Positions 9,389 through 38,370 of a DNA stretch of 41,427 bases are shown piece after piece. Within the stretch, counting starts at the first letter, position 1. Every line of letters starts with the position of its first letter. The notes under the pieces are model-generated. The model was given only the letters and a program-made list of their open reading frames with translations. It had not been told where the DNA came from and did no database searches. Position numbers and translations under genes: made by a program. The stretch is from contig JAYZQJ010000147.1 of NCBI GenBank assembly GCA_036149055.1, forward strand, positions 1-41,427, written 5' to 3'. The DNA is from Myxococcota bacterium (GTDB lineage Bacteria > Myxococcota_A > Polyangia > Polyangiales > Sandaracinaceae).

Positions 9389-10858
9389 ATGCGCCGCAAC
9401 CCGATGACGGCCGACACGGAAGAGGCGCCCTCGCTCAAGAAGCGCGCGGTGACCGGCACGCTCCTGAGCGTTGCCAACGTCGCGGGCATGCAGATCATCC
9501 GGCTCGCCGGCAACCTGATCACCACCCGCCTGCTGTTCCCGGAGGCCTACGGTCTCATGGCGATGGTCCTGGTGCTCAACCAGGGCCTCCAGATGATCAG
9601 CGACGTCGGCATCCTGCCGTCGATCATCCAGCACGAGCGCGGCGACGAGCGCCGCTTCCTCGACACCGCCTGGACGCTCTCGGTGATCCGCGGCGCGGTC
9701 CTGTCGCTGCTCGCGCTCTCGATCGCCTGGCCGTACGCCGAGTTCTACGGGGAGCCGCAGCTCTTCCCGCTGGTGATCCTCGCGAGCACGCAGGGCTTCA
9801 TCAGCGGCCTCGACTCCACCAAGCTCGCGACGCTGAACCGCCGGATCGAGGTCGGCCGGCTCGTGCTGGTCAACATCGGCGGCCAGGTCGTGGTGCTGAT
9901 CGTGATGGTCGCCTGGGCGTATCTGAGCCCGAGCGTCTGGGCGCTCGCGGTCGGCGCGGTCTCCGGCGACCTGGCCCGCATGATCCTCAGCCACGTCGCG
10001 CTGCCGGGGAAGAACAACCGCTTCGCCTGGGATCCCGAGGCGGCCAAGGCGGTCTTCGACTTCGGCAAGTGGATCTTCCTGTCGACCCTGGTGACCTACC
10101 TCGGGCTGCGCTTCGACATCATGGCCCTCGGCAAGCTCGAGGAGATGGACGTCATCGGCATCTACAACATCGGCCAGAGCCTCGCGGGCCTGCCGGTGCT
10201 GGTGACGGGCCAGATCGTGATCTGGGTGCTCTTACCCGCGCTCAGCGAGTCCTTCCGCGACGACCAGGACCGCTTCGGCGAGAACGTGCGCCGCGCGCGC
10301 CGGGTGCTCAACGCCGCCGGCGTCCTCATGGTCACCGCCACCGCGATCGGCGCCCCCGCGTTCTTCTACCTGCTCTACGACCCCCGCTGGCACGACGCCG
10401 GCTGGATGGTCCAGCTGCTGATGGTGCCGACCTGGTTCTACTTCATGCAGGAGACCTCCATCCGCGTGCAGCTCGCGATGGGCGACTCCCGGCATCAGAT
10501 GCTCTCCAACGTGGCCAAGCTCGTCGGCACCGTGCCCGGCGCGCTCCTCGGCTTCTGGATCGCCGACGTGCCCGGCCTGATCATCGGCCTCTCGCTCGGC
10601 TCCTTCATGGGCTACGGCACCGTCTGCTGGGGCCTCAAGCAGAAGGGCATCCCGATCTTCGTGTCGGACCTCAAGTGGACGGTCCTCGGCCTCGTGATCG
10701 GCCTCATCGGCGGCGTCACCCCCTGGATCGTCGGCCCCCTGCTCGAAGTCGATCCCCAGCTCGCCAGCCTCGCCATCGGCCCCCTCGTGCTCCTCCCCTA
10801 CGCCATCTACGCCGGCCGCCTCACGCTCGGCGCCATCCGCTCTCGCCCCCGCTCCTGA
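9389..10858 (+). CDS. wzx: Oligosaccharide flippase (Wzx, PST family)
   Basis: Motifs RLLFPEAYGLMA, SDVGILPSIIQ, TAWTLSVIRG, FDFGKWIFLS and IGIYNIG, with about 12 TM segments. An alternative start lies at 9404. Confidence 0.88.
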   Translation: MRRNPMTADTEEAPSLKKRAVTGTLLSVANVAGMQIIRLAGNLITTRLLFPEAYGLMAMVLVLNQGLQMISDVGILPSIIQHERGDERRFLDTAWTLSVIRGAVLSLLALSIAWPYAEFYGEPQLFPLVILASTQGFISGLDSTKLATLNRRIEVGRLVLVNIGGQVVVLIVMVAWAYLSPSVWALAVGAVSGDLARMILSHVALPGKNNRFAWDPEAAKAVFDFGKWIFLSTLVTYLGLRFDIMALGKLEEMDVIGIYNIGQSLAGLPVLVTGQIVIWVLLPALSESFRDDQDRFGENVRRARRVLNAAGVLMVTATAIGAPAFFYLLYDPRWHDAGWMVQLLMVPTWFYFMQETSIRVQLAMGDSRHQMLSNVAKLVGTVPGALLGFWIADVPGLIIGLSLGSFMGYGTVCWGLKQKGIPIFVSDLKWTVLGLVIGLIGGVTPWIVGPLLEVDPQLASLAIGPLVLLPYAIYAGRLTLGAIRSRPRS

Positions 10859-10898: not shown

Positions 10899-11047
10899 GG
10901 GAGAGGGGAGGTGGGAGGCGAGGAGGAATACGGGCGGCTGGGTGCCACGCCGTCGGTGCAGTCGCCGCCGCGTCGGCTGATGCGGGCCGTGGGCCATGTC
11001 GACCTGCTGGTCGACATCCTCTCCTCGCCTCCCGTCTCCCCTCTCCC
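10899..11047. repeat. Long inverted repeat with inner hairpin between convergent genes (REP-like or terminator)
   Basis: The 27-nt arms 10899-10925 and 11021-11047 pair at 25/27 positions, and both mismatches are G-U on the + strand RNA. There is an inner perfect 9-bp hairpin ATGTCGACC-TGCT-GGTCGACAT (10996-11017). Confidence 0.75.
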
Positions 11048-11092
11048 TGGGTGCTGGGAGGCAGACGAGGTCCGAACCCAGAGGGAGGGAGG

Positions 11093-11920
11093 TCAGCGGC
11101 CGAGGGCGGCGCGCACGCGGTCGCGGACGGAGCGGACGCGGCGCCTCGCTTCGCGGACGCCGTGGCGGGCGCGCTCGGCGGGCATGAGCACGTACTTCTT
11201 GAAGCGCTCCTCGGGGCGGGCGCGGAAGATGGTGCTGTGGTTCTTGCCGCTGTATCCGGCGGGCGCCTCGCGCGTGTAGTAGTAGGTCGCGAAGGACTGG
11301 CGCACGACGTCGGGGGGGCAGGTGACCGGCTCGACCCCGTGGTAGCTGGTCTCGCTCGTCTCGAAGATGACGCAGCGGTTCATCACCGGCTCGAAGGCGT
11401 GGTGGCGGACCTTCACCTTCTCGTCCCAGAGCTCGACCGCGCCGCCCCAGCGACGCTCCCAGGCAGGGTTGAGGTAGAGGAGGAGGTTGAGGCGCCGGTG
11501 GATCTTCTTCTCCGGGAGGAAGTTGAAGTCCACGTGCACGTCGAGGCGGCCGCGGGGCCCGGTGATGTGGATGCCGCCGCCGGCGAGGGTCGCGTCGGCG
11601 AGCAGCTTCGGCACGCCGGTGATGCGCTCGAGCGCCTCGAGGAACTCCGGCGAGGCCAGCATCGCGTTCAGCTGCGCGACCGGCTCCGGGAAGCGCTCGG
11701 CGTCCGTGATCTGGATCTTCCGGTACTCGTTCACCGCCTCGAACTGGCGGCCGAGGGCGTTGGCCTCGTCGAAGGACGGGTAGCTGGCGGCGACCGCGCG
11801 GGCGAAGTCTTCGTCCAGGAAGCCGTCGATCTTCACGTGCGGGAAGGGCTTCGCGGTCTGGAATTCCCGGGCGAGCCGGTCCACGTCCAGGGATTGCATC
11901 ATGGCGATGGTGCCTACCAT
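11093..11920 (-). CDS. 2OG-Fe(II) oxygenase (prolyl-4-hydroxylase-like)
   Basis: PFPHVKIDGFL, HxD facial-triad motif GRLDVHVDFN, RRLNLLLYLN, distal His in SYHGV and the co-substrate-binding RxS (RQS). The exact start is uncertain (11920, 11902 or 11899). Confidence 0.88.
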   Translation of the reverse strand: MVGTIAMMQSLDVDRLAREFQTAKPFPHVKIDGFLDEDFARAVAASYPSFDEANALGRQFEAVNEYRKIQITDAERFPEPVAQLNAMLASPEFLEALERITGVPKLLADATLAGGGIHITGPRGRLDVHVDFNFLPEKKIHRRLNLLLYLNPAWERRWGGAVELWDEKVKVRHHAFEPVMNRCVIFETSETSYHGVEPVTCPPDVVRQSFATYYYTREAPAGYSGKNHSTIFRARPEERFKKYVLMPAERARHGVREARRRVRSVRDRVRAALGR

Positions 11921-12023
11921 GAAGTGAGGCTACGGGCCCGTCGACGCCGTCTTCCCTGCATTGCGGAGTCGGCACCGATCAGGTACGAGCGCCGTGGCCA
12001 AATGGCACACCGAAGGAGGCGCC

Positions 12024-13172
12024 GTGGCGATCCAGATCGTTCCGCACACCGAGGAGAAGAAGCCGCTCGTGGAGGCGTTCAACGCCAAGATGCACGGCGG
12101 GGGCTCGCCCTACGGCTTCTACGTGGAGCCCACGCCGCGCTGGATCCCGAAGCGCGAGGGTCAGAAGGTCTGGCGTGAGCTCTACCTCGCGGTGAAGCAG
12201 GGCAAGGACGGCGACGAGGAGGTCGTCGGCGGCTACGCGCTCAAGCCCCAGGTCTGGCTCGTGAACGGCGAGGAGCACGTCGTCGCGGACTGGCAGGGGC
12301 CCTTCAGCCTCGGCGCGATCGACAACAAATACGCGGCGATGGGCCTGCGCATGGTGCGCGACATGCTCAAGAAGCAGCCGCTCATCTACAGCTGGGGCCA
12401 CGGCGGCGAGGACGAGCCGATCGTGCAGATGCTCCGGAAAATGGGGTGGCTCCTGCACGAGACGCCCTTCCTGTTCCGCATCTGCAAGCCCAAGAACTTC
12501 CTGACCAAGAACGCCTACCTCCGCGACGACGAGAAGAAGGCGCTCGCCCAGGACTTCCTGGCCTACTCGGGCCTCGGCTTCCTCGGCCTGCACACGCTGC
12601 ACGCCGCGCTCCGGGTCCGCTCGCTCAAGCTGCGCTTCGAGGCCCAGGCCGAGGTGGTGCCGCAGCTCGGCCCGTGGGCCGACGATCTCTGGGAGCGGGT
12701 GCGCGGGGAGTACGCGGCGATCGCGGTGCGCGACGCCGACACCATGAACGCCCTCGCGTCCCCCGAGCACGACCACGACGAGTGGCCCGAGCCGATCCGC
12801 CTGCGGATCCGCAAGGACGGGCGCGACATCGGCTGGGCCATCGTGCTCGAGCGGCAGCAGAAGGGGAACGCCCGCTTCGGCGACATGCGCATGGGGATGG
12901 TGGCAGATTACCTCGCCCACCCCGACGACGCGGCCGAGGTGGTGCACGCTGCGTTTGCTCACCTGCGTGACCTCGGGGTCGACATGGTCATGGCGAACCA
13001 GTCGCACCCGAAGTGGGTCGCCGGGTTCGAGGACGCGGGCTTCCTCAAGGTCGACAAGCGGCGCATCTTCTGTGCGTCGCCCGACCTCGAGAAGGTGCTG
13101 AAACCATGGACGGAGACGCGGGAGGGGCTCTTCTTGACCAACATGGACGGCCACGGCCCGATGGGCATCTGA
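12024..13172 (+). CDS. Conserved-looking protein with a probable tandem GNAT-fold acyl/aminoacyl transferase
   Basis: GTG start after a strong GAAGGAGG SD and coding-like codon usage. Segments resembling GNAT motifs: 'AIDNKYAAMGLRMVRDML..KMGW' and 'GMVADYLA..AFAHLRDLGVDMV..GFEDAGFL'. The family call is tentative. Confidence 0.6.
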   Translation: MAIQIVPHTEEKKPLVEAFNAKMHGGGSPYGFYVEPTPRWIPKREGQKVWRELYLAVKQGKDGDEEVVGGYALKPQVWLVNGEEHVVADWQGPFSLGAIDNKYAAMGLRMVRDMLKKQPLIYSWGHGGEDEPIVQMLRKMGWLLHETPFLFRICKPKNFLTKNAYLRDDEKKALAQDFLAYSGLGFLGLHTLHAALRVRSLKLRFEAQAEVVPQLGPWADDLWERVRGEYAAIAVRDADTMNALASPEHDHDEWPEPIRLRIRKDGRDIGWAIVLERQQKGNARFGDMRMGMVADYLAHPDDAAEVVHAAFAHLRDLGVDMVMANQSHPKWVAGFEDAGFLKVDKRRIFCASPDLEKVLKPWTETREGLFLTNMDGHGPMGI

Positions 13173-13333
13173 GCGGGCCGCGGATCGTCCGAAGGGGTCC
13201 TGGATCACGGAGGGGAGCTGAACCCAGGGTTGCAAGCGTGGAACGTTGCGAGGCGACGATTCCCGTTTAGATTCAACCCCCCGGGGACGCAGCCGCGTGA
13301 CCGGACGTAGGAAGGACCCAGGGAGTCGATACG

Positions 13334-14212
13334 ATGGAGACCGCATCCGAGCTGGCCGTGCGCCTCACCAAGCTGTCGCGCGAGCAATTCTGGAACGTCT
13401 ACACGGAGTTCGACTGGCCGGAGGAGCTGTCGGCCGACCGCTACTGCATGAAGCCGGAGCTGATCTCGATCTACGGGACCGAGCTCTGGGAGCAGCTGGA
13501 CGAGACGCAGCGCAAGCGCCTCAGCCTCTACGAGATCGGGAACTTCTTCAGCCTGACCCTGCAGGGCGAGCGCCCGCTCGTCGCCGGGCTGAGCGACCGT
13601 CTCTACTCGAAGAAGGTGACGGAGGAGGCCACCGAGTACCTCCACCACTTCATCGACGAAGAGAACAAGCACATGATCATGTTCGGGATCTTCCTCCAGA
13701 AGTATCTGGGGAAGGTGTACCCGGAGAAGAAGATCGCGCTCGACCGCGAGTACGCGAAGGGCGAAGAGGAGCTCGCCTTCTTCTGCAAGGTCATGGTCGT
13801 CGAAGAGCTGGGCGACTACTACAACGTCAAGATGATGCTCGATGACGAGATCGAGCCGATCGTCAAGCAGGTGAACTGGGTCCATCACCGCGACGAGTCG
13901 CGGCACCTCGGCTTCGGCCGCCGTCACCTCACGGAGCTCGCCGAGCACTGGCTGCCGCAGTGGGACGATGCGACCAAGGAGCGCTTCAGCGCCTGGCTGA
14001 CCGCCTACACGAAGTCGAGCTGGAGCGACTTCTACAACCCCAAGATGTACGACGACGCGGGCCTGCGCGACGTCACCGGCATGTCCGGCTACCAGATCCG
14101 CAAGATGGCCCTCGCGCACCCGGCCACCGCCGAGCACCGCGCCAAGGCGAGCAAGAAGCTGCTCAACATCTTCGTCCGCCTCGGGCTGCTGCAGGACCGT
14201 CCGGAGATGTGA
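13334..14212 (+). CDS. AurF/CmlI-family ferritin-like diiron oxygenase
   Basis: Diiron ligand pattern LQGE...DEENKH...VEE...HHRDESRH, including the extra His upstream of DExxH that is typical of AurF-type N-oxygenases. N-terminal 'EFDWP..MKPELISIYGTELWEQLDETQR'. Confidence 0.85.
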   Translation: METASELAVRLTKLSREQFWNVYTEFDWPEELSADRYCMKPELISIYGTELWEQLDETQRKRLSLYEIGNFFSLTLQGERPLVAGLSDRLYSKKVTEEATEYLHHFIDEENKHMIMFGIFLQKYLGKVYPEKKIALDREYAKGEEELAFFCKVMVVEELGDYYNVKMMLDDEIEPIVKQVNWVHHRDESRHLGFGRRHLTELAEHWLPQWDDATKERFSAWLTAYTKSSWSDFYNPKMYDDAGLRDVTGMSGYQIRKMALAHPATAEHRAKASKKLLNIFVRLGLLQDRPEM

Positions 14213-14259
14213 ACACGGCGCTTGGAACGTGTGCCCCCGCTCCTAGCTCAGGGAGGACG

Positions 14260-14457
14260 ATGATGACCGAGGAGAACGCACACGTTCGGAAGCTTCAGGA
14301 GCGCGAGGAGAAGCGTCGCCAAGACGCGCCCTCCCGCGACGGCGAGCAAGGCTCCGACTGGTCCGGACAGCCGGCCGAGGACGCGGAGCGCCGGCGTGGG
14401 ACGGGGCGTGGGCTCGACGAGCCCGAGAAGGACGCGCCGCCCGACGCCCTGGACTGA
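14260..14457 (+). CDS. Small hydrophilic, probably disordered protein (65 aa)
   Basis: GGGAGG SD before the ATG. Highly charged sequence MMTEENAHVRKLQEREEKRRQD...PPDALD with GC-rich third codon positions. Confidence 0.55.
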   Translation: MMTEENAHVRKLQEREEKRRQDAPSRDGEQGSDWSGQPAEDAERRRGTGRGLDEPEKDAPPDALD

Positions 14458-14471
14458 GCGGATCGAGCGCG

Positions 14472-14496
14472 TGCGTCTTCCTCATCGGGAGGCGCA
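14472..14496 (+). terminator. Stem-loop after the small ORF (terminator- or attenuator-like)
   Basis: TGCGTCTTCC-TCATC-GGGAGGCGCA forms a 10-bp stem with two G-U pairs. No U tract follows. Confidence 0.35.
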
Positions 14497-14631
14497 GATG
14501 GACGTTGGTAGCTGGCAGACGACCCTCGTGTCTCGCGCGGGCGCGCGATCGGACGGAGGGGCCGACTGATGGAGCAGACCCGTGGCTTGCCCGTCCGGGA
14601 AAATGGTGCACCCTCGCGCATCCGAGGCGAC

Positions 14632-14886
14632 ATGGACGAGCAGAACATTCGAAGGCAGCTCCGTGACTGGGTTCTCGAGCACGCGAAGGCGCCGCCTCCT
14701 GGCGGAGAGCTGACCGACGCGACGCCGCTCCTCGAGACCGGCCTGATCTCTTCGCTCGACATCGTCGAGCTCGTGCTCTTCCTCGAGGAGCTGCGGGAGG
14801 AGGAGATCGATCCGGACGAGATCGAGCCCGAGGTCTTCACCAGCGTCGACACGCTCTGGGGAGCGTTCTTCGCCAACGCCGCGTAG
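14632..14886 (+). CDS. Stand-alone acyl/aminoacyl carrier protein (DltC-like)
   Basis: 84 aa and acidic. The motif TPLLETGLISSLDIVELVLFLEE contains the Ppant Ser. Directly upstream of an adenylation enzyme. An in-frame ATG at 14569 is an alternative start. Confidence 0.88.
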   Translation: MDEQNIRRQLRDWVLEHAKAPPPGGELTDATPLLETGLISSLDIVELVLFLEELREEEIDPDEIEPEVFTSVDTLWGAFFANAA

Positions 14887-14908
14887 AGTCCGGGCAGGGA
14901 GGGAGCGC

Positions 14909-16495
14909 ATGGCGCGCACGTTGAGGGACGGATTCTTGGCGTCGGCCGAGCGCTTCGCCGACCGCGAGGCGCTCACCGTCGGCGAGGACCGGCTGACCTA
15001 TCGCGAGCTGCTGACGCTCGCCCGCCGGGTGGCCGCGACGCTGGACGCGCACGCGCCGCCCCAGGAGGGCAAGCTCACCGCCGTCTTCGGCCACCGCCAC
15101 CCGAGCACCTTCGGGGGCATCCTCGGCGCGCTCCTGCGCGGCCACGGCTACGTGCCGCTCAACCCGGCGTTCCCGATCGACCGCACCCGCGCGATGCTCC
15201 AGCGATCGCGCTGCGGGTGCGTCGTCGTCGATCCGACGGCGATCGATCAGATCGACGAGCTGCTCGAGGGCGCCGAGCGAGATCTCGTGGTGCTCGTCCC
15301 CGACGCCGATGACGTCTCGGCCCACGCGGCGAAGCACGAGCGGCACACCTTCCTCGGCGCGTCCGACCTCGCCCCGGCGGAGCGCTGCGAGCTCGGCGAG
15401 GCGAGCCCGGACGAGGTCGCCTACCTCCTCTTCACCAGCGGGAGCACCGGCCGCCCGAAGGGCGTGATGGTCGCGCATCGCAACGTGACCGCCTTCGTCG
15501 ACTATATGGTCGAGCGCTACGCGATCTCCGAGGAGGATCGCTTCAGCAACACCTTCGACCTGACCTTCGACCTCAGCGTCTTCGACATGTTCTGCGCGTG
15601 GGAGCGGGGCGCGTGCCTCTGCGTGCCCACCGCCGCCCAGAAGATGTTCCCCGGCAAGTACGTCAAGAAGGAGGCGCTGACCGTGTGGTTCAGCGTGCCC
15701 TCGACCGGCGTGCTGATGAGCCGCCTCAAGATGCTCAAGCCGGGCAGCTACGAGAGCCTGCGCTGGGCGCTCTTCTGCGGCGAGGCGCTGCCGGCCGAGA
15801 TCATCGAGCGCTTCGCCGAGGCGGCGCCGAACGCGGTCTGCGAGAACCTCTACGGGCCGACCGAGCTGACCATCGCCTGCACCTACTACCGGTGGGACGC
15901 GGCGCGGTCGCCGGCCGAGTGCCACCTGGGCGTGGTCCCGATCGGCGAGCCGTACCCCGGCATGGAGATCCGGGTGGCCGATGAGGACCTGAACGAGGTC
16001 CCGCGCGGCGAGCCGGGCGAGCTGCTGATGACCGGGCCGCAGATGACGCCCGGCTACTGGGAGGACCCCGAGAAGACGGCGAAGGCCTTCGTGGTCCCGC
16101 CGGGCGAGACGCGCACCTTCTACCGGACGGGCGACCGCGTGCGCTGGCCCGAGGGCGCGCCCGTCGTCTATCTCGGCCGGGTCGACAACCAGATCAAGAT
16201 CCAGGGCTACCGGGTGGAGCTCGGGGAGATCGAGGCGGTGCTGCGCGACGTCAGCGGCGCCGAGGTCGGCATCGCGGTCGGCTGGCCGCAGACCGCGAGC
16301 GGCGCCGACGGGGTGGTCGGCTTCGTCAACGCGGCGGGCGGTGACGCGGCCGCGATCCTCGCCGCCGCGCGGGAGCGTCTCCCCGGCTACATGCAGCCGT
16401 CGGCGGTGCACCTCGTGGACACCTTCCCCCTCAACGCCAACGGCAAGGTCGATCGCAAGGCGCTGATCGAGCGCCTGAAAGGAGCCGAGGTCTGA
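14909..16495 (+). CDS. Stand-alone amino-acid adenylation enzyme (DltA-like amino acid--carrier protein ligase)
   Basis: Core motifs LTYREL, YLLFTSGSTGRPKG, FDLSVFD, FCGEAL, NLYGPTE, YRTGD, GRVDNQIKIQGYRVELGEIE and PLNANGKVDR. No C or PCP domain. Confidence 0.93.
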   Translation: MARTLRDGFLASAERFADREALTVGEDRLTYRELLTLARRVAATLDAHAPPQEGKLTAVFGHRHPSTFGGILGALLRGHGYVPLNPAFPIDRTRAMLQRSRCGCVVVDPTAIDQIDELLEGAERDLVVLVPDADDVSAHAAKHERHTFLGASDLAPAERCELGEASPDEVAYLLFTSGSTGRPKGVMVAHRNVTAFVDYMVERYAISEEDRFSNTFDLTFDLSVFDMFCAWERGACLCVPTAAQKMFPGKYVKKEALTVWFSVPSTGVLMSRLKMLKPGSYESLRWALFCGEALPAEIIERFAEAAPNAVCENLYGPTELTIACTYYRWDAARSPAECHLGVVPIGEPYPGMEIRVADEDLNEVPRGEPGELLMTGPQMTPGYWEDPEKTAKAFVVPPGETRTFYRTGDRVRWPEGAPVVYLGRVDNQIKIQGYRVELGEIEAVLRDVSGAEVGIAVGWPQTASGADGVVGFVNAAGGDAAAILAAARERLPGYMQPSAVHLVDTFPLNANGKVDRKALIERLKGAEV

Positions 16496-17349
16496 TGTCG
16501 CGCTTCCGCTGGGTCGTGAAGAAGGCGGCGCGCCAGGGCATGGCGCTCGGCAGCTGGGCGAGCGGCTCGCTGACCGCGCGCTCGGTGCTGCAGCGGCGTC
16601 CGCGGGTGCGCGCGCTCACCTATCACCGGATCGGCTACGAGTCCCAGGAGGCGTTCTGCGTGACGCCGGAGGACTTCGAGGCGCAGATCGGCTCGCTCGC
16701 CGAGCGCGGCGTGGCCGTGACCCTCGACCAGGTCGAGGCGTTCGTGGCCGGCCGTGAGGCGCTGCCCGACGGCGCCTGTCTGGTCACCATCGACGACGGC
16801 TGCGTCAGCACGATGACCGAGGCGCTGCCCATCCTGAAGCGCCACGGGGTCACCGCGGTGGCGTACGTGACCGCCAGCCTCGTCGGCTCCGACATCCGCG
16901 AGCTGCCCGAGCGCTACCTCGACTGGGACGAGCTCCGCGAGGTCGCGGACACCGGCGTGATCGAGATCGGCAGCCACGCTTACACCCACCGCTCGCTCGG
17001 CCTGATGCCGGCGGACGAGGCGCGGGACGAGGCGCAGCGCAGCAAGGACCTGCTCGAGGAGCACCTCCAGCGGGAGGTCCGCACCTTCGCGTACCCGTTC
17101 GGGACCCGCACCGACTTCGGCCCCGTCACCGAGCGGGCGCTCGCGGACGCGGGCTATCGCATCGCCTTCAACTCCATGCACGGCACGATCAAGTCCGGGA
17201 TGGACCCGATCAGCCTCCCGCGCGTCAAAGTCGAAGGCGGCGAGGGCCTCTGGATGTTTCGATTGCTGAGTCGGGGGGCTATGGATCCCTGGAGAGCGGT
17301 GGATCAGACGTTGTGGAGACTTCAGCGCGAGCGTACCGAGATCTCCTGA
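16495..17349 (+). CDS. Polysaccharide deacetylase (NodB/CE4, IcaB/PgaB-like)
   Basis: Motifs LTYHRI, VTIDDG, IGSHAYTH, FAYPFG and LPRV. TGATG-coupled to the adenylation gene. Confidence 0.9.
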   Translation: MSRFRWVVKKAARQGMALGSWASGSLTARSVLQRRPRVRALTYHRIGYESQEAFCVTPEDFEAQIGSLAERGVAVTLDQVEAFVAGREALPDGACLVTIDDGCVSTMTEALPILKRHGVTAVAYVTASLVGSDIRELPERYLDWDELREVADTGVIEIGSHAYTHRSLGLMPADEARDEAQRSKDLLEEHLQREVRTFAYPFGTRTDFGPVTERALADAGYRIAFNSMHGTIKSGMDPISLPRVKVEGGEGLWMFRLLSRGAMDPWRAVDQTLWRLQRERTEIS

Positions 17350-18368
17350 CCCTCCTGATGGTGGGCCTGCTGGCCGCCTGTGGAGGGGAGGAGCATCCGT
17401 CCCCGCGGCCTCCGACCGTCACGGTCTCCAATCCGCCCGAGCGGGGAGGCGGCGCCCTCGCCCAGAGCGCGCGCGCGTCCTGGGACTGGGGCGCGATCCC
17501 CGACGACTGCGTGGTGGAGCTGCCGAACCCGCCCCGCGTCCGTCGCACCGTGCACGTGCGGCAGCCCCAGCGGCGCCTCGAAGAGGCGGGCACGCGCTAC
17601 CTCATCCACACCGACATCGACGGCCGGCTCGACGTGCTCGCCTCCGACGTCGAGCTGATCGTCGACGAGGGCGTGCGCATCGAGGAGCTGCTCATCCACC
17701 ACGACCTCGAGCGGGTGCGGGTGGCCGGCGGCATCTTCGGCGCGATCGAGATCATGATCCCCGGTCGCTTCGCGCCGCCCCCGGTCACCTGGAACGAGGA
17801 CTGGCTGGTGGAGGACGTCACCATCGACGGCGTCACCGTCGAGTCCGACGACACCGCCTTCGCGATCCGCGGCCGGCGCGTCGCCATCCTCAACAGCCGC
17901 GCCACCGCGCGCAACTACTCCATCTGGCTCGGGGACACGCACACGTTCCAGAGCCACGACCTGCTGGTCGCCGGCAACCGGTTCCGGAGCGCCGGGCCCG
18001 AGTCGACGGTGCGTCTGGTCGCGATCGACGGCGCCATCGTGGTCGACAACGAGCTGGCCAACACCCGCAAGCACGCCTTCCGGATCCACGGCCGGAGCGA
18101 CAACGTCTACTTCGCGCGCAACCGGCTGGTGGACACCGGGGTGATGATCGGCTCGATGGACGGCGACCAGGTCGGCAGCGTCTGGCTCGTCGACAACACC
18201 GTGCACCTCACGGTCCCGAGCCTGCTCGTGGCCCCGCCCGAGCGCATCCGCCGCCTCACCGCGCGGGGCAACCGGGTGTTCTCGGACGAGTGGGACTGCT
18301 TCGTGTGCGCGCGCGGCGACGGCTGGGAGATCGGGGACAACCCGATCCAGTCCTATCGCGCGCCCTGA
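17313..18368 (+). CDS. Lipoprotein with a probable right-handed parallel beta-helix (pectin-lyase-like) domain, paralog 1
   Basis: Lipobox LAAC. Repeating beta-helix-like segments (DVTIDGVTVE, RVAILNSR, DLLVAGNRF, NVYFARNRL, VWLVDNTV). Clearly similar to 18903-19931. The start codon is uncertain (17313 or 17358). Confidence 0.65.
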   Translation: METSARAYRDLLTLLMVGLLAACGGEEHPSPRPPTVTVSNPPERGGGALAQSARASWDWGAIPDDCVVELPNPPRVRRTVHVRQPQRRLEEAGTRYLIHTDIDGRLDVLASDVELIVDEGVRIEELLIHHDLERVRVAGGIFGAIEIMIPGRFAPPPVTWNEDWLVEDVTIDGVTVESDDTAFAIRGRRVAILNSRATARNYSIWLGDTHTFQSHDLLVAGNRFRSAGPESTVRLVAIDGAIVVDNELANTRKHAFRIHGRSDNVYFARNRLVDTGVMIGSMDGDQVGSVWLVDNTVHLTVPSLLVAPPERIRRLTARGNRVFSDEWDCFVCARGDGWEIGDNPIQSYRAP

Positions 18369-18815: not shown

Positions 18816-18902
18816 CACCCGGGGGGTACGGACGATCGCGGCCAGCCTTGAGCGCCCATCGCATTGACGCGGCGCGCGGGTCCTTCTCACAATGCGTCCA
18901 CG

Positions 18903-19931
18903 ATGCGCATCGCGATCGCCGCACTGCTCCTCGCCGGCTGCGTCGGCACCGTCTCCGGAGACGGAACCGACGGAGGCGGGGCCCACGACGGGCGCCTCCC
19001 GCCGCCGCCTCCGCCGCCGCCCGGCGACGCCCTGTACGATCTCGGCGCGCTCCCCGGGGAGCTCGAGATCCAGTGGCCCGCGCTGCCTGAGACCTCGCGG
19101 GAGGTCACCGTGCGCACCGCCGCCGAGCTGACCGAGGCCGCGAGCCAGCCGGGCACCCGCATCCGGGTCGAGGGCAGCTTCTCCGAGCGCGCCTACGTGC
19201 GCGCGTCGAACATCGACATCGAGGTGGCCGAGGGCATGCGGCTCGGGAGCCTGATGATCGAGCGGGCGAACGGCCGAGTGCGGGTGCGCGGTGGGCAGTG
19301 GACCGAGATCGAGCTCCAGGTGCCGGCGCAGTTCCACCCCAGCGAGGAGTGGCGACCGGAGTGGCTGGTCCACGACGTGGTGATCGACGGCGTGAGCGTC
19401 GACGCGCCCGACAGCGCCTTCCTGATCCGCGGCCGGCGCGTGGCCATCCTCAACAGCTACGCGCACGCGGTGCGCTACTCGATGTGGTGCGGCGAGACCG
19501 ACGACTTCCAGTCGGAGGACATCATCGTCGCCAACGTGATCTTCGAGAGCGACGGCCCGGAGTCGACGCTGCGGCTCGTGCAGGTGCTGCGCTCGGTCAC
19601 CGTCGACTCGCGGCTGAGCAACGGCAACAAGCACAACTACCGGGTGCACGGCCGCAGCGATCTCAACTTCGCCGCGCGCAACACCCTGGTCACCACCGGG
19701 GTGATGCTCGGCACCTTGCCCGGGGACGCGCTCGAGCGGGTCTGGTTCAACGACAACGTGCTGCACCACACGAGCCCCTCGCTCCTGGTGCCCGACCCCG
19801 ACATCGGCCGGTTCGAGAGCCTGGACAACACCATCTACAGCGACGTGGTCGGCTGCTGGCTCTGCGGCACCCCGCCCTCGAGCTGGCGCGCCGAGAACAA
19901 CCAGATCCTCCCCTACCAGCCGCCTCCCTGA
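18903..19931 (+). CDS. Lipoprotein with a probable right-handed parallel beta-helix domain, paralog 2
   Basis: Signal peptide MRIAIAALLLAGC and a poly-Pro linker. Shares IRGRRVAILNS, FQS.D, GPEST.RLV, HGRSD, TGVM.G, PSLLV and a C-terminal CxxC with paralog 1. Confidence 0.7.
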   Translation: MRIAIAALLLAGCVGTVSGDGTDGGGAHDGRLPPPPPPPPGDALYDLGALPGELEIQWPALPETSREVTVRTAAELTEAASQPGTRIRVEGSFSERAYVRASNIDIEVAEGMRLGSLMIERANGRVRVRGGQWTEIELQVPAQFHPSEEWRPEWLVHDVVIDGVSVDAPDSAFLIRGRRVAILNSYAHAVRYSMWCGETDDFQSEDIIVANVIFESDGPESTLRLVQVLRSVTVDSRLSNGNKHNYRVHGRSDLNFAARNTLVTTGVMLGTLPGDALERVWFNDNVLHHTSPSLLVPDPDIGRFESLDNTIYSDVVGCWLCGTPPSSWRAENNQILPYQPPP

Positions 19932-19962
19932 CCGATGCTACCGTCCGACCGTGGAGGTCGGG

Positions 19963-21399
19963 ATGCGTGGAGCGTGCTGGGTGATGGTCGCCTTGATCGG
20001 CGTCGGGTGCGACGGGGGAGGCGAGCCGGACGCGGGGGCCCGTCTCGACGCGAGCGTGGAGGCCGACGCCGGCCTCGCGATCGAGTGCGAGGTGCCCGCG
20101 CCGGTGGTGGCCGGGACGGCGGAGACCGACGCGCTCGCCGACGCGCCCGCGCGCTGCGGGCAGCCGGCCCACGCCTGGCTGCGCAGCGACACCCTCGGCG
20201 CGGTCGTCGACGCGGGGGAGCCGGAGCGCATGTCGCGGCTCGTGCTCGACGGGATCATCGCGGGCGCCGGCCTCACCGCGCCGCGCCCCGCCGGGGCCGA
20301 CGTGACGCTGCGGGTCGTCCGCTACCTCACCCAGGACCGCGGGGCGGAGGTCGAGGCGACCACCCTCGTCGCCTACCCGGACGTCGAGGAGCGCGGGCAG
20401 ACCCTCGACGTGGTGGTCTTCCTGCACGGGACCAGCGGCTTCACCGCCGGCTGCGGCTCGAGCGAGGACACCGCCTACCGCGCGCTGGTCGCGCTCTTCG
20501 CCTCCTACGGCTACCTCGCCATCGCGCCGGACTACCTGGGCCTCGAGGCCGGCGAGGCGAGCTACGGCGAGCTGCACCCCTACCTCTCCGGGCAGGCCAC
20601 CGCGATCGCCTCGCTCGACGCGGTGCGGGCCGCGGCCCGGCTGCCGGTGGAGGCGCGGGGCTGGACCTGCGCCGCGCCCCGCTTCGTGACCGTCGGCGGA
20701 TCCCAGGGCGGGCACGCGGCGCTCTGGGTCGAGCGGCTGCAGCCGTACTACGCGCGGGAGCTCGAGCTCGTGGGCACCGTCGCGACGGTCCCGCCCGCCG
20801 ACCTGATGGGGCAGATCCAGCGCGGCCTGACCGAGGTGGTCTCCGCGACCGGCAACACCATCGCGTTCTACGGCACCGCGCCCTTCTGGTACGGCGTCGG
20901 CGATCGGCTCGACGAGGTCTTCGTCTCGCCCTTCGACGTCGACGTGCCCGCGGCGCTGCGAGCGGAGTGCTCGCCTAGCGAGATCCCGGACGTCACCCGG
21001 CTCGACGAGGTGTTCACCGCGGAGCTGCTCGACGCCGCGGCCGGGGACGCCTTCGGGGCGCTCGACCCGTGGGGCTGCATCGTGCGCGAGAACGGGCTCA
21101 CGACGACCTCGGTCCCGCGCCTCGGCCCCGACGCGTCGAGCTACGGGGTCCTGATGGTCACCGGCGAGGCGGACGCGCTGGTGCACACCCCGATCGAGCG
21201 CGCGGCCTTCGAGACCCTGTGCGAGGCCGGCGTCCCCCTCCGCTACCTCGAGTGCGAGGGCGCCGACCACGGCGAGGGCACGCTCTGGGCGCTGCCGGAG
21301 ATCGTCTCCTTCGCCGAGGCGCGGCTCGCGGGCGAGGCCTTCGAGCCGCCCGCCGACTGCGCTCCCCCGCCCCCGTCTCGGTGCGAGGGGACCCCGTAG
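19963..21399 (+). CDS. Secretory lipase-family alpha/beta hydrolase, lipoprotein
   Basis: Lipobox GVGC, LHGTSG, APDYLGL, HPYL, nucleophile elbow GGSQGG, GEADALV (Asp) and GADH (His). GGAGG SD. Confidence 0.85.
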   Translation: MRGACWVMVALIGVGCDGGGEPDAGARLDASVEADAGLAIECEVPAPVVAGTAETDALADAPARCGQPAHAWLRSDTLGAVVDAGEPERMSRLVLDGIIAGAGLTAPRPAGADVTLRVVRYLTQDRGAEVEATTLVAYPDVEERGQTLDVVVFLHGTSGFTAGCGSSEDTAYRALVALFASYGYLAIAPDYLGLEAGEASYGELHPYLSGQATAIASLDAVRAAARLPVEARGWTCAAPRFVTVGGSQGGHAALWVERLQPYYARELELVGTVATVPPADLMGQIQRGLTEVVSATGNTIAFYGTAPFWYGVGDRLDEVFVSPFDVDVPAALRAECSPSEIPDVTRLDEVFTAELLDAAAGDAFGALDPWGCIVRENGLTTTSVPRLGPDASSYGVLMVTGEADALVHTPIERAAFETLCEAGVPLRYLECEGADHGEGTLWALPEIVSFAEARLAGEAFEPPADCAPPPPSRCEGTP

Positions 21400-21405
21400 A
21401 CCGCG

Positions 21406-22770
21406 TCAGAGCGAGCGCAGGTAGGCGGCGAGGGCGGTCCGCTCCTCTTCGGTGATCGTCGTGCCGAAGGTGTGGCCGCCGTTGTCGTTGCCGGGGGCGG
21501 CGGTGTCGACCTCGAAGCCGTGGCGCTCGAAGGTGACCGGGCGCTCGGCGGGGGGCCGGAGCAGGTCTTCGAGGGTGGGCACGCTCCCGTTGTGGAGGAA
21601 GGGCGCCGTGAACCACACCATGCGCAGGTCGGCGGCGCGGTAGCCGTCCGAGAGGCGCGTGCGGAGGCCGTTTCGGGTGATGAACCGGAAGAGGTCGGCG
21701 AGGCCCTCGTCGGGGCCGCCGCCGCCCATCTCGTCGCCGTCGATCAAGACGCGGTGAAGCCGGCTGGTGCGGATCGAGCCGTTCGGGAAGTCCGGGTGCT
21801 CGCCCGGCCGGCGCTCGGCGCCCACCGGATCGGCGTCGTAGGTCACCACCCCGAGCGCGCTCGGGTCGTCCACGTGGTGGCAGCCGTCGCAGCCCTCGCG
21901 CTCGTAGACGGCGCGGCCCGCGCTCACGCTCGCCGCGTCCTGCGGGGGCGCCGCCGGAGGCTCGAGCGCCGACATGAAGGCGATCATCGGATCGAGGCGG
22001 GCGGCGCTCGGCCACGGCACCTCCGCGTCCCGCGGGTTCGGGTTGCCGGCGCCGGCGCTGTAGACGGAGAGGTAGATCTCGGTGCGCGCGTCTCCGCCGG
22101 TCCCCAGATAGTTCAGCGACGTGCGCTGGCCGAGGCTGAAGTAGGTGGGGTAGTCGGCCGGCACCGCCTGCTCGTAGCTGCTCGACTCCGCGCCCACGCG
22201 CCCCGGCCCGAGCTCGGCCAGCTTCGCGCGGTCGAGCGCGCTCAGGAACGGCGCGTTCCCGTCCGCGGTCCAGCGGTCGTCGGCGAAGAGCAGGAAGGCC
22301 GGCCAGCGCAGCCCCACGTTGGGCGCGCCGAACCACAGCCGCCCATCCGGAAGCTCGGCCACGTGGCAGAGCGCGCAGGTGACGGACACCTGGGTCGGAT
22401 CCTCGAGGCCGCGCTTGAAGCCGACCGGGAAGTCGTCGGCCGGGTCGTCCAGGAAGCCGTAGGCGTCGAAGAGCGCCGGGTCCTCGGCGAGCAGGCCCTC
22501 GAAGAACGCGGCCGGCGGGAGCCCGCTCACCCGCTCGGTGCCGAACGCGTCCCAGAGGAAGCGCTGCTGCCCCTCGTAGAGAGGGTCGGACGGCGGCACC
22601 CCGTTGGCGACCTCGGGGCCAGAGAGGCCCTGCACGTCGGGCGGCGGGGGCCCGGCGTCGGGCGCGGAGTCTCCCGCGTCCGGCCGGCCCGCGTCGCCCG
22701 CGGGGACGGGGCCGTCACACGCGAACGCCGACAGGAGCAGGAGCGAGAGGACGGGCAGGCGTCGGCGCAT
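21406..22770 (-). CDS. Di-heme cytochrome c lipoprotein (RoxA-like / bCcP-MauG superfamily)
   Basis: Lipobox AFAC and heme motifs CALCH and CDGCH. C-terminal YRAADLRMVWFTAPFLHNGSVPTL...GNDNGGHTFG...ALAAYLRSL. TGATG-coupled to the upstream gene. Confidence 0.82.
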   Translation of the reverse strand: MRRRLPVLSLLLLSAFACDGPVPAGDAGRPDAGDSAPDAGPPPPDVQGLSGPEVANGVPPSDPLYEGQQRFLWDAFGTERVSGLPPAAFFEGLLAEDPALFDAYGFLDDPADDFPVGFKRGLEDPTQVSVTCALCHVAELPDGRLWFGAPNVGLRWPAFLLFADDRWTADGNAPFLSALDRAKLAELGPGRVGAESSSYEQAVPADYPTYFSLGQRTSLNYLGTGGDARTEIYLSVYSAGAGNPNPRDAEVPWPSAARLDPMIAFMSALEPPAAPPQDAASVSAGRAVYEREGCDGCHHVDDPSALGVVTYDADPVGAERRPGEHPDFPNGSIRTSRLHRVLIDGDEMGGGGPDEGLADLFRFITRNGLRTRLSDGYRAADLRMVWFTAPFLHNGSVPTLEDLLRPPAERPVTFERHGFEVDTAAPGNDNGGHTFGTTITEEERTALAAYLRSL

Positions 22771-24464
22771 CAGAGCGTCTCCAGGTAGCGGACGAGGGCG
22801 TCGAGCGCGGCCTCGTCGAGGTGGTGGGCGCGGCCGTGGAGGGTGCCGTGGTCGGTGAGCACGCTCCGCAGCGTCGGGGCCCGGCCGTCGTGCAGGTAGG
22901 GCGGGCGGGCGCGCACCCCGCGCAGGCTCGGGGTCTGGGCGGCCTCGAGCCGGGCGAGCGGATCGTCGCTCGGCGCGAGCACCGCGTGGGATCGCGCGTC
23001 GGACAGGAGCGGCCCCCCGTGGCAGCCGTCGCAGCCGGCCGCCTCGAACACCGCGCGCCCCTCCGCGCCGTCGTGGGGAGCGCCCGGCGGGATCGGGGCC
23101 TCCTGCATCCAGGCGGCCATCGCGTCGGTGTCGACCAGGAGGCCGTCGCCCTCCATCAGCTCGCGAATCGTGGCGTGGCTGAGGGTCGCGGCGTCCGGCA
23201 GCTCCCCGTCCCAGTGCAGCGGGCCGAGCCCCTCGCGCGCCGCCCAGGCCGGGGGCGTGCGGCGCACCTTGGGGGCGATGCCCGCGGTGTGCAGGAACCA
23301 GGTGAGCCCGTCCTCGCCGCCGCCCGGGTGGCAGGTCCCGCAGGTCACCACGCCGCTCGGCGTCAGGTGGGTGTCGTCCGCGTCGAAGAAGATCGCGCGG
23401 CCGCGCAGCGCCGCGTCGCTCAGCCGCGCCTCGCCGAGGGCCCGGGTGCGCTCGAGGTCCGCCCCCCGCACCGCGCCCTGCGCGCCCGAAAGCGAGAGCC
23501 GGGCGACCGCGTGGTCGAAGCCGACGTCCACCCAGGCGGTGCGGCCGTCCTCGCTCAGCGCGATCCCGCGCGGCCCGCGCCCGAGCTCGAAGGTGGCCAG
23601 CCAGGGGAGCGCCGCGCCGGGCTCGCAGCGCAGCACCGCCACGTTCCCGGTCTGACGGTGCGCGACCCAGACGAGGTCGCCGGCGGCCGCGATCGCGCTC
23701 GGCCCGCTGAAGACCCGGGCGCCGCCGTCGAAGCGGGCGTAGGCGCCGGCGCAGGCGCCGTGGAGCCGGGGCTCGATGCGGGGCGCGCCGTCGAAGACCG
23801 AGCCGTAGCCGCCGCGCTCGGGCGGCCGTTCGCGATCGCTGTCGTGGTCCACGCGCTGGTAGACCCCGGTGAAGTCGCCCCGGACCGGGGCGAGCGCCTC
23901 GAGCTGCACCGCGGCGACGCCGGCGCCCGGCGAGAGCGCGCGCTCCTCGAGGAGGCGCCCCTCGAGGTCGACGATCCGCACCCGGCCGGTGCGCGACAGC
24001 CCGATGGCGAGCCGGTCTCCTCGAATGGCCAGCGCGGTCGGCCGGCCCTCCGCCGGGAAGACGTCGACCACGCGGCTCCGCGAGACCCGCAGCACGCGCT
24101 CGTCCCAGGGGCAGCTCACGAACGCGCCGCCCCGCCCGTCGGGGACCACCGCCGCGCTGCCGCCGCAGGGCACCGGCACCCGGACCGCGGCGCCCGCCTC
24201 GATCCAGGCGAGCTCGCTGGCCTGCGCGAGGGTCACCAGCAGCGCGTCGCCCACCACGGCGAGCTGCTCGGGCGCGCCCGCCACCTCGACCCGGGCCCGC
24301 TCCTCGAGCGACTCCGGGTCGAGCGCGATCACCGCGTCGTCGTCGGGCGAGGTCAGCCACAGCAGCCCGTCCGGCCCGCGCGCCACCGTGGACGAGGCGG
24401 CCGAGAAGCCGCCCACGTCGGCGCAGCCGAGCAGCACGAGGGCGAGGCCGAAGGCGCGCGTCAC
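22770..24464 (-). CDS. Lipoprotein: YVTN/NHL-like beta-propeller fused to a di-heme cytochrome c peroxidase-like domain
   Basis: GTG start overlapping the upstream stop, lipobox LLGC and propeller blades (GAPEQLAV, GRPTALAI, SGPSAIA, GRGPRGIALSEDG). Heme motifs CGTCH and CDGCH, plus RRTPP, LHWDG and TPSLRGV..PPYLHDG. Confidence 0.82.
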   Translation of the reverse strand: MTRAFGLALVLLGCADVGGFSAASSTVARGPDGLLWLTSPDDDAVIALDPESLEERARVEVAGAPEQLAVVGDALLVTLAQASELAWIEAGAAVRVPVPCGGSAAVVPDGRGGAFVSCPWDERVLRVSRSRVVDVFPAEGRPTALAIRGDRLAIGLSRTGRVRIVDLEGRLLEERALSPGAGVAAVQLEALAPVRGDFTGVYQRVDHDSDRERPPERGGYGSVFDGAPRIEPRLHGACAGAYARFDGGARVFSGPSAIAAAGDLVWVAHRQTGNVAVLRCEPGAALPWLATFELGRGPRGIALSEDGRTAWVDVGFDHAVARLSLSGAQGAVRGADLERTRALGEARLSDAALRGRAIFFDADDTHLTPSGVVTCGTCHPGGGEDGLTWFLHTAGIAPKVRRTPPAWAAREGLGPLHWDGELPDAATLSHATIRELMEGDGLLVDTDAMAAWMQEAPIPPGAPHDGAEGRAVFEAAGCDGCHGGPLLSDARSHAVLAPSDDPLARLEAAQTPSLRGVRARPPYLHDGRAPTLRSVLTDHGTLHGRAHHLDEAALDALVRYLETL

Positions 24465-26035: not shown

Positions 26036-26104
26036 GCGCACCCCCTCGAAAGCTCGGGGGACACGCTAGCGGCCCCAGCCGCGAGTGAACGCAGAGGCGC
26101 CGGC

Positions 26105-33091: not shown

Positions 33092-33756
33092 TCACGCGAG
33101 ATCCTCTCCGCCCGGAATCCAGGCCGCCGCGATCACGTGATCGGCGGCCCGCACGAAGCGCCCGGAGATGGTGAAGCCGGCCTGGAAAGGCGCGGCGCGC
33201 CGCTGGAACACGGCCTCGAAGCGATCCCCTTCGCCGTGCCGGATCACGACGTCCTCGAACTCCAGGAACGTCCCGCTCAGCGGGTACTGACACTTGTAGG
33301 CGGCCTCCTTCGCGCAGAAGGTGCGCCGGGCCCGCTCGCCGGGGCGCGGATCGTCCCGCAGGCTCGCGTGCTCCTCGCGGGTCGTGATCAGGCCCCAGAG
33401 CTCCTCCTCGAGCGCGGCGTCCGGCTCCGCGTCCAGGCCCAGCCCGTCGAGCTCCCGCGCGTCCGCGACCGCGGCCACGCACAGGGTGTCGGTGTGGGTG
33501 ATGGTGCCCACCACGCCCTCCGGCCAGAGCGGCTCCCCGCGATCGCCGCGCCCGATCGACGCGGCCGGGGCCCCGAGCTGGCGCAGGGCGTCCCGCGCCG
33601 CGTCGCGCCCGGCGGCGAGCTCGAGGCGCCGCTTGTCGACCGCGCGCGCGGCCAGGGCCTCCTCCTCGGGCCGGAGCGCCGAGAGGGGGACCTGACCCGG
33701 CACGCGCACCGCGAAGCGCACCCGGGAGCCCAGAAGGGCGCGTAGCGCCTCCTCGA

Positions 33757-33760
<4 letters not shown>
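33092..33760 (-). CDS. 4'-phosphopantetheinyl transferase (EntD/Sfp-type)
   Basis: Motifs KRRLELAAGR..ARDAL, GEPLWPEGVVGTITH, GLGLDAE and FCAKEAAYK. GTG start overlaps the NRPS stop. Confidence 0.93.

Positions 33761-38370
<4,610 letters not shown>

Follow-up and report, generated by a model that had tools for sequence, protein, structure and literature searches.

A conserved carrier-protein cassette with an AurF-fold diiron enzyme and a tandem-GNAT transferase in a myxobacterial exopolysaccharide cluster

We analyzed a 41,427-nucleotide stretch of DNA (the window), which is the entire contig JAYZQJ010000147.1 (C147) from the 9.9 Mb, high-GC genome of a Myxococcota bacterium; its named best matches point to a position in or near Sandaracinaceae. 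Profile scans of the window's open reading frames (ORFs) place most of a Wzx/Wzy exopolysaccharide cluster in it, and beside the wzx flippase gene lies the subject of this study, a gene cassette built around a stand-alone acyl carrier protein (ACP). We conclude that this cassette is a conserved, uncharacterised module, probably of carrier-dependent surface-glycan acylation. Its conserved core consists of four genes, encoding a tandem-GNAT transferase, an AurF-type diiron enzyme, the ACP and an adenylation (A) enzyme. The six genes that a preliminary description, made from the sequence alone, had recognized here are confirmed in the list below, in frames with coding-type GC content at third codon positions.

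11093-11920, minus strand: 2OG-Fe(II) oxygenase (2OG enzyme), accessory (PF13640, E 2.6e-19)
12024-13172, plus strand: tandem-GNAT acyltransferase, 382 aa, GTG start, core (no significant Pfam or NCBIfam match; assigned by fold)
13334-14212, plus strand: AurF/CmlI-fold ferritin-like diiron enzyme, 292 aa, core (PF11583, E 1.6e-40)
14260-14457, plus strand: charged ORF of 65 aa with a ribosome-binding site, non-core (from sequence; no Pfam match)
14632-14886, plus strand: stand-alone ACP, 84 aa, Ser41 in GLISSLD, core (weak NCBIfam ACP matches below cut-off, none in Pfam)
14909-16495, plus strand: stand-alone A enzyme, 528 aa, core (TIGR01733, 355 bits against a cut-off of 317)
16495-17349, plus strand: CE4 polysaccharide deacetylase, 284 aa, frequent partner (PF01522, E 2.5e-22)

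The single-strand run described earlier is confirmed, with the TGATG overlap between the A and CE4 genes; gaps of 161 bp (GNAT-AurF) and 419 bp (AurF-ACP) show that the genes are not tightly packed. The 65-aa ORF occupies the larger gap and has homologues in only three distinct close relatives among the loci compared. The 2OG gene, noted previously as divergent, points away from the GNAT gene and is convergent with wzx. No module protein has a signal peptide or membrane segment by hydropathy, and a promoter and terminator scan gave nothing exceeding shuffled sequences. In one RNA library a contig spans 12063-18803 and a separate one 10900-11946, and another run covers 11956-14940; these runs were selected with this very stretch, their contigs show no single transcript and may include DNA, and we did not use them as evidence.

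To define the cassette we compared 20 regions from relatives and the best 80 of 194 AurF-like matches; removal of 11 duplicates reduced these 100 loci to 89, and the final neighbor counts were made by tblastn on DNA. Both these loci and the genomes described below include kin and are not independent, and we claim no statistics from the counts. ACP and A genes accompany the AurF-type gene in 62 of the 89 loci, and the GNAT gene is also present in 53. The carrier-based module of the preliminary description, which had staked its case on such co-occurrence, is thus real and conserved. At least one polysaccharide marker is found in 54 of the 62 ACP+A loci, a polyketide synthase (PKS) in 15 and an MBOAT gene in 6, and the AurF gene usually abuts the ACP gene. 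Among the 41 loci flanked by 5 kb or more on both sides, GNAT was detected in 38, a deacetylase in 33 and the 2OG enzyme in 8. Record titles assign the loci to Myxococcota/Deltaproteobacteria, Burkholderiales, Gammaproteobacteria and Planctomycetota. In three trees, records labelled 'Spirochaetaceae' cluster with Myxococcota rows, and Spirochaetota is not counted as a separate phylum.

The same picture emerged at the genome level. Across 61 related genomes, strong AurF and ACP matches occur in the same 17 genomes of the family (one of these, G023, is unpublished, and leaving it out gives an unchanged pattern with 16), and one extra strong AurF match (G048) belongs to another kind of cluster. 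These 17 cassette genomes also have the GNAT gene, as does G004, in which 219 bp separate the end of the A gene from a contig edge. In three genomes the GNAT-AurF and ACP-A pairs lie on different contigs, with all genes present.

Next, we considered what the carrier is loaded with. Ser41 and Asp43 of the ACP are invariant in 32 orthologues. The pocket of the A enzyme, read from the alignment, is DLFFLCLIAK, against DLHLFCLIAK in AlmE; 66 orthologue matches comprise 45 with DLFFLCLIAK, 8 with DLHFLCLIAK, 3 single-position variants and 10 truncated sequences. By pocket-region match, the nearest solved stand-alone relatives are 8k4r (which we take to be VinM), 6akd (IdnL7) and 4oxi (AlmE). The pocket keeps the equivalents of AlmE L248 and C316, glycine determinants that exclude larger and D residues, and lacks those of IdnL7 C217/A285/T318, three positions that admit L-Ala and L-Ser (PMC11253843). 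These motifs suggest that the A enzyme is likely of the AlmE type and glycine-specific.

The ligase had originally been called DltA-like. We rejected a DltA identity because both DltA models score below cut-off (NF003417, 270 against 476 bits; TIGR01734, 265 against 560), and the pocket is of the AlmE/glycine type. An explanation along Dlt or Alm lines, in which plain D-alanine or glycine is added and the diiron enzyme is a bystander, could appeal to the pocket residues Leu236 and Cys301 (GrsA numbering), common to DltA and AlmE, and to the 6 loci with MBOAT. However, besides the DltA scores, neither MBOAT nor DltD is present among the scanned ORFs of the window, as the preliminary description had stated, or in 56 of the 62 loci (a genome-wide MBOAT query matches other contigs only), and the diiron enzyme shares the distribution of the ACP in the 61 genomes and usually sits next to it. 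We therefore consider this explanation exceedingly improbable.

The diiron enzyme matches PF11583 with 139.5 bits against a gathering threshold of 29.6. Its closest folds are CmlI (Z 20.8, rmsd 3.5, 269 residues aligned) and AurF (Z 19.7), followed by ribonucleotide reductase R2 (Z 16.9). In 27 diiron-enzyme sequences, E78, E110xxH113, E157 and H184xxxE188xxH191 are invariant; we take this set of four Glu and three His, with its extra His, to be the AurF ligand pattern, the residues being assigned by motif spacing and not by structural superposition. Judging from the modeled fold, the enzyme is likely an N-oxygenase of carrier-bound glycine. Precedents for N-oxidation of carrier-bound glycine by diiron enzymes are available (PMC9967187, PMC3445576, PMC12154687). 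A more distant AurF-like gene lies in a different kind of cluster (L040, 6899-12863), which consists of an acyl-AMP ligase, KAS III, AurF, ACP, a SerRS-like ligase and a reductase.

The product of 12024-13172 had been proposed to be a GNAT-like acyltransferase, and the earlier proposal depended on its having that fold. The fold is indeed that of a GNAT: the AlphaFold2 model (pLDDT 94.8) best matches NMT (Z 18.2, rmsd 4.8, 305 residues aligned) and Eis2 (Z 15.8), with FemX and FemA at Z 10.5 and 10.1, and model residues 1-378 align to NMT and Eis, giving two GNAT domains per chain. Atlas look-alikes at 0.96 carry Acetyltransf_9 on 11-27% of members. The family comprises 879 clusters at 50% identity (E<=0.001) and has no Pfam model; Pfam searches of 80 members returned three stray single matches, with FemAB or Acetyltransf_6 in 0 of 80. 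A C-terminal N-x-D-G-H-G-P motif is among the best-conserved parts of the protein. The C-terminus of NMT takes part in deprotonating the acceptor amine, and the motif hints at a parallel.

Several observations connect this transferase family with carrier proteins. Two relatives are fused C-terminally to an A or an A-MT-PCP module (MT, methyltransferase; PCP, peptidyl carrier protein). We also sampled a distant GNAT clade, taking the best 80 of 450 metagenome loci, 34 of which are on contigs shorter than 5 kb. A carrier or loader gene is present in 50 of the 80 (36 of 46 among loci of at least 5 kb), FkbH in 23 and CE4 in 26; glycosyltransferases, UDP-sugar dehydrogenase and amidotransferase recur as neighbors, and no PKS cluster is among the recurring neighbors. 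An AurF-like gene was found beside 0 of these 80 GNATs, many of them on short contigs, with a profile that detects controls of 24-25% identity at E ~1e-14. The A-GNAT and A-MT-PCP-GNAT fusions and the carrier or loader neighbors support transfer from a carrier. In complex prediction, GNAT and ACP scored 0.44 against 0.00 for the best control, with contacts agreeing at least 94% between runs and partner pLDDT of at least 84; the mark used is reached by 116 of 157 solved pairs and 2 of 215 mismatched pairs, and at scores up to 0.60 by 18 solved pairs and both mismatches. This prediction lends weak support to an interaction. Consequently, we regard the modeled tandem GNAT as a likely carrier-to-amine transferase.

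The deacetylase, which is translationally coupled to the A gene, contains the metal and catalytic motifs of CE4 enzymes (TIDDG, HAYTH and FAYPFG). A deacetylase usually accompanies the core, as previously suggested: 44 of the 62 ACP+A loci carry one, of the CE4 type in 32 and of the DUF2334 type in 12. The 2OG enzyme, which had been given a possible step in the pathway, behaves differently. It is present in only 13 of the 62 loci, and a close orthologue is found in 10 of the 17 cassette genomes and 5 others and was not found in 7 of the 17, two of which are 100% complete. Its orthologues also adjoin unrelated genes: a NADH dehydrogenase operon, a carbamoyltransferase and a pantothenate kinase (L134, L136, L138). 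We thus rejected it as a core step and consider it an accessory neighbor.

Taken together, we propose that glycyl-ACP is N-oxidised and that the resulting group is then transferred to a sugar amine unmasked by the CE4 enzyme, before flipping. The A enzyme would activate glycine as Gly-AMP and load it onto the ACP as glycyl-S-ACP; the diiron enzyme would oxidise the tethered amine to the N-hydroxy, oxime or nitro level; the CE4 enzyme would unmask the sugar amine; and the tandem GNAT would pass the two-carbon acyl group from the ACP to that amine. The acceptor may be a cytoplasmic nucleotide-sugar or a lipid-linked repeat unit, with Wzx flipping and polymerisation afterwards. We place the transfer in the cytoplasm because all five proteins lack signal peptides, and a cytoplasmic transfer ahead of Wzx flipping would explain why MBOAT and DltD are not needed. 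We give this reading as a whole about an even chance of being right; its chemistry (the substrate, the oxidation product, the order of the steps and the acceptor) is inferred from the observed genes, folds, residues and co-occurrence.

Several points weigh against this proposal. The identity of the diiron enzyme to CmlI and AurF is no more than 12-15%, and a PDB sequence search with the AurF alignment gave no meaningful match; the assignment of N-oxygenation therefore rests on the fold. Of the 89 AurF loci, 20 have no GNAT, ACP or A orthologue. Within the 62 ACP+A loci, a deacetylase is not visible in 18 (8 of the 41 with long flanks), GNAT is absent from 9 and a polysaccharide marker from 8, and the kinship among loci further lessens the value of these counts. 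The window has no evident gene for an amino-sugar pathway; the sugar genes scanned there are rml, GalE-like, PssD/E and WcaJ. All 17 cassette genomes contain an LLM nonribosomal peptide synthetase (NRPS) and 15 of them a PKS, which could lengthen the acyl group ahead of its transfer. Finally, a flavin monooxygenase that takes the oxidase position in related loci might indicate that carbon is oxidised and nitrogen lost. The last two points are taken up below.

The loci without a visible deacetylase or marker are also compatible with an acceptor other than a deacetylated sugar amine. A sugar hydroxyl, a small molecule, a protein-anchoring linker or a lipid (lipid A in the case of AlmG) could take its place, and the deacetylase would then have its own job. 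The AlmE-like A domain fits this idea, as does a GNAT paralogue that occurs with A, acyl-CoA-dehydrogenase-like and ACP genes outside any polysaccharide cluster (L121, L123). Against it stand the translational coupling of CE4 in the window, the CE4 genes found close to GNATs of the distant clade (26 of 80 loci) and the top folds, which are those of N-acyltransferases. We judge a different acceptor very unlikely, and favor an amine because of the VimE/VimA precedent (PMC7468200) and these folds.

The host cluster bears on the fate of the oxidised group. Besides the genes listed next, the window carries rmlDCAB, a Wzy-like polymerase, GT4, a GT-C-type membrane protein, GT2, a GalE-like epimerase, PssD/E, a chain-length protein, an export protein and WcaJ.

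9389-10858, plus strand: Wzx flippase of the host exopolysaccharide cluster (PF13440, E 8e-50)
27146-29062, minus strand: asparagine-synthase-type amidotransferase, a WbpS-like context gene (PF00733 and TIGR01536 above cut-off)
33092-33760, minus strand: EntD/PptT-type phosphopantetheinyl transferase (PPTase) (PF17837, PF01648)
33757-38370, minus strand: formyltransferase-A-LLM(MupA/Atu3671)-PCP NRPS (Pfam and TIGR04020 above cut-off)

The PPTase likely primes the ACP. It had been described as the single enzyme that both carrier systems would share; it is the only one in the window, whereas contig C260 of this genome encodes another. The formyl-A-LLM-PCP NRPS is a separate and wider-spread module within the same cluster as the cassette. 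An LLM domain occurs in 25 of the 61 genomes, including 17 of 17 with the cassette, and a PKS in 23, including 15 of the 17. The proposed link between the cassette and the formyl-NRPS-LLM module therefore holds at the genome level, in the 17 cassette genomes and with 8 further genomes carrying the latter. This genome's one-module PKS (KS-AT-KR-DH-ACP-TE) is on contig C62 (4833-11345, L222), together with two GT2 genes; in relatives the PKS and the two GT2 genes belong to the same cluster, and here that cluster is split over contigs. Since LLM-NRPS and PKS are also found in genomes without the cassette, the cassette is an optional add-on nested inside a wider PKS/NRPS polysaccharide system.

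The AurF paralogues in the 20 non-cassette loci point to a further connection. A MupA/Atu3671 LLM lies within 4 kb of the AurF gene in 13 of them, as a gene of its own or as part of a formyl-A-LLM-PCP NRPS; a polysaccharide marker is present in none of the 20. The LLM-paired paralogues, which are mostly head-to-head with the LLM gene, are those of L037, L038, L039, L078, L085, L086 and L088, with further pairs in L092, L093, L096, L100, L112 and L113, and they form two separate clades in a tree. This pairing links the diiron family with LLM chemistry and lends itself to two alternatives.

In the first of these, oxidised glycyl-ACP is a starter unit that the one-module PKS, the formyl-NRPS-LLM or both extend, and a longer acyl chain is then transferred or released. 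Althiomycin and akazaoxime provide analogues, and the genome distributions, the PKS within 15 of the 62 loci, the C62 PKS beside two GT2 genes and the LLM-paired paralogues of the two clades all favor such an extension. However, 7 genomes carry PKS and LLM-NRPS but no cassette, and both of these systems have their own carrier domains. In addition, the constant neighbor is GNAT (53 loci) and not PKS (15 of 62), and the distant GNAT clade has no PKS cluster among its recurring neighbors. We consider extension fairly unlikely.

The second alternative is that nitrogen is lost. Here the diiron enzyme with an LLM, or a flavin enzyme alone in variant loci, would yield glyoxylyl- or glycolyl-ACP, and the sugar would receive an N-glyoxylyl or N-glycolyl group. 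The variant loci come from the distant clade, in which 7 loci have an A domain with a glycine-type pocket (six at 32-33% identity and one at 45%). In 6 of the 7, an SsuD-like flavin monooxygenase adjoins this A gene, and the seventh contig starts inside the A gene. The SsuD-like enzyme thus stands in the AurF position beside the same pocket, which suggests that an oxidase slot is kept and to that extent also speaks for the oxidation step of our proposal. The GNATs of these loci fall in at least four separate places of a fast tree, and some of the loci are near-copies. The variant cassette of SsuD-like LLM, A (DLFFLCLIAK), ACP and GNAT, with no AurF, is seen in L149 (1258-5377), L150, L152 (2864-8765), L153, L154, L155 and L185, and its neighbors include a flavin reductase (L152) and an ATP-grasp or carbamoyltransferase gene.

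An LLM in the oxidase slot with the same pocket, the flavin reductase of L152 and the repeated pairing of AurF paralogues with LLMs would all suit nitrogen loss, and the FkbH variants of the GNAT family imply, from that family's known role, small hydroxy-acyl donors. A 2021 paper by He and Ryan reportedly names in its title the denitrification of glycine-derived nitronates, and we count it on the same side. In contrast, an LLM lies within 4 kb of AurF in 0 of the 62 ACP+A loci, and no nitronate monooxygenase or dedicated reductase was found among the recurring neighbors scanned. Nitrogen loss appears to us distinctly unlikely, and we retain transfer of an N-oxidised glycyl group as the preferred reading.

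Other donor modules accompany the same transferase family. A recurring operon contains UDP-sugar dehydrogenase, GT4, a glyoxalase-fold protein, FkbH, ACP, the tandem GNAT and CE4 (L157, L159, L168, L172, L189, L191, L192, L202, L203, L208), and it is a candidate route for N-glyceroyl transfer to polysaccharide. Elsewhere, A, ACP and acyl-CoA dehydrogenase genes lie beside a GNAT paralogue or a hexapeptide transferase (L121, 9800-14050; L077, 16650-19700; L081, 1040-4822); their A-domain code is presumably proline-type, and the combination is a candidate pyrrolyl-transfer module. Read most simply, a single family of transferases would draw on interchangeable donors bound to carriers, with an oxidase slot retained in the glycine version. 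A broader hypothesis, which we find possible but doubtful, makes the tandem GNAT the founding member of a widespread group of glycan N-acyltransferases that depend on carriers and use plug-in donor modules (FkbH; proline-type A with dehydrogenase; glycine A with diiron or flavin oxidase); here the polysaccharide would bear an N-oxidised glycyl amide (oximino-, N-hydroxy- or nitro-acetyl).

To our knowledge, an N-O group has not been described in any bacterial polysaccharide. If our proposal is true, such a substituent could bind metals or cross-link the matrix, and carrier-bound N-oxidation, known from antibiotic pathways, would have been moved onto cell-surface polysaccharide. An unusual sugar substituent would then be predicted in predatory myxobacteria, freshwater Sphaerotilaceae and other groups. 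It would also give the unannotated transferase family of 879 clusters a testable function, with the neighboring loader predicting the acyl group. Cultured carriers among the matches are Sandaracinus amylolyticus and Piscinibacter sp. HJYY11.

The cassette works like a hybrid of three described systems (Wbp/Vim, AlmEFG and the enteromycin/althiomycin type) and is a member of none. The first is the Wbp/Vim linking-sugar pathway of Porphyromonas gingivalis and Tannerella forsythia, with VimE, VimA and WbpS (PMC7468200). For that pathway a CE4 deacetylation of an N-acetyl sugar and a GNAT-type transfer of Ser/Gly to the freed amine are proposed, with an asparagine-synthase-like amidotransferase nearby (PMC7468200); 'deacetylate then re-acylate', which the preliminary description took to be an undescribed route, is already the route of VimE and VimA. 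The window shares the CE4 deacetylase with a GNAT-type transferase (a deacetylase being present in 44 of 62 loci). In contrast, the available part of PMC7468200 describes no dedicated A domain, ACP or oxidase. VimA matches the FemAB-type model TIGR03019, whereas the cassette GNAT has no FemAB or Acetyltransf_6 match and no NCBIfam match at E<=0.001, and fits NMT and Eis (Z 18.2 and 15.8) better than FemX and FemA (10.5 and 10.1). The wbpABED genes for diacetamido-uronic acid were not found among the window ORFs; the rest of the genome, over which the cluster is split, was not searched.

In the second system, AlmEFG of Vibrio cholerae, AlmF is a dedicated carrier and AlmG is a transferase of the cytoplasmic lipid A acyltransferase type, which decorates a surface glycoconjugate. 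This lipopolysaccharide glycylation pathway shares with the cassette a stand-alone glycine-activating A enzyme with the same Leu/Cys pocket (PMC11253843). The cassette differs in its tandem-GNAT transferase, its additional oxidase and deacetylase and its Wzx/Wzy polysaccharide context, and no lipid A acyltransferase of the AlmG type was matched among the window ORFs. Likewise, the teichoic acid D-alanylation system DltABCD resembles the cassette in having a stand-alone ligase and a carrier (the phosphopantetheine Ser is present here) for cell-surface decoration. It differs from the cassette, which scores below the DltA cut-offs, lacks DltB and DltD, is predicted to transfer on the cytoplasmic side and belongs to a Gram-negative polysaccharide.

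Enteromycin carboxamide, of the third type, is said to arise from a glycine-derived nitronate pathway (the work of He and Ryan in 2021). Its combination of glycine loader, carrier and diiron oxygenase is matched here at the gene and motif level only. In related glycine nitronate and oxime pathways, carrier glycine is N-oxidised by an AurF-type diiron enzyme (akazaoxime/A-76356, PMC9967187; althiomycin Alb2/AlmD, PMC3445576). The akazaoxime, althiomycin and enteromycin pathways feed NRPS/PKS antibiotics and use an O-methyltransferase, whereas the cassette has no constant methyltransferase neighbor and has a GNAT partner in a polysaccharide cluster. No nitronate O-methyltransferase or monooxygenase was found among the window ORFs or the recurring neighbors scanned; the genome was not searched for these families. 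Carrier-bound glycine N-oxidation and deacetylation followed by re-acylation are thus each known, and we found no description of the combined cassette in the open literature searched, most of which was judged by title and the start of the abstract; the paper of He and Ryan, outside that scope, could mention cassettes of a related kind. PMC11350588 had no bearing on the question, and a palmerolide preprint offered background on LLM enzymes in general.

Some further features of the surroundings were recorded. The formyl-A-LLM-PCP NRPS and the KS-AT-KR-DH-ACP-TE PKS with its GT2 pair are regular companions in polysaccharide clusters (found in 25 and 23 of the 61 genomes). The A domain of the NRPS in the window gives a partial glycine-type pocket reading, and it is our speculation that a formyltransferase and an N-oxygenase acting on glycine could yield an N-formyl-N-hydroxyglycyl group. 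Carbamoyltransferase, SxtJ-like and SGNH genes recur beside the Burkholderiales cassette (L058, L060, L064, L065, L075, L076, L106) and beside the LLM variant, and this genome has a 58% match on C240. A non-polysaccharide insert lies mid-cluster at 19951-26041, with a secretory lipase-like gene, cytochrome c peroxidase/MauG-like matches and a lipoprotein-like gene of 526 aa. Directly downstream of the CE4 gene, on the plus strand, are two related beta-helix, lipoprotein-like genes (17313-18368 and 18864-19931, weak PF13229), which few related loci have and which may encode polysaccharide lyases or binders.

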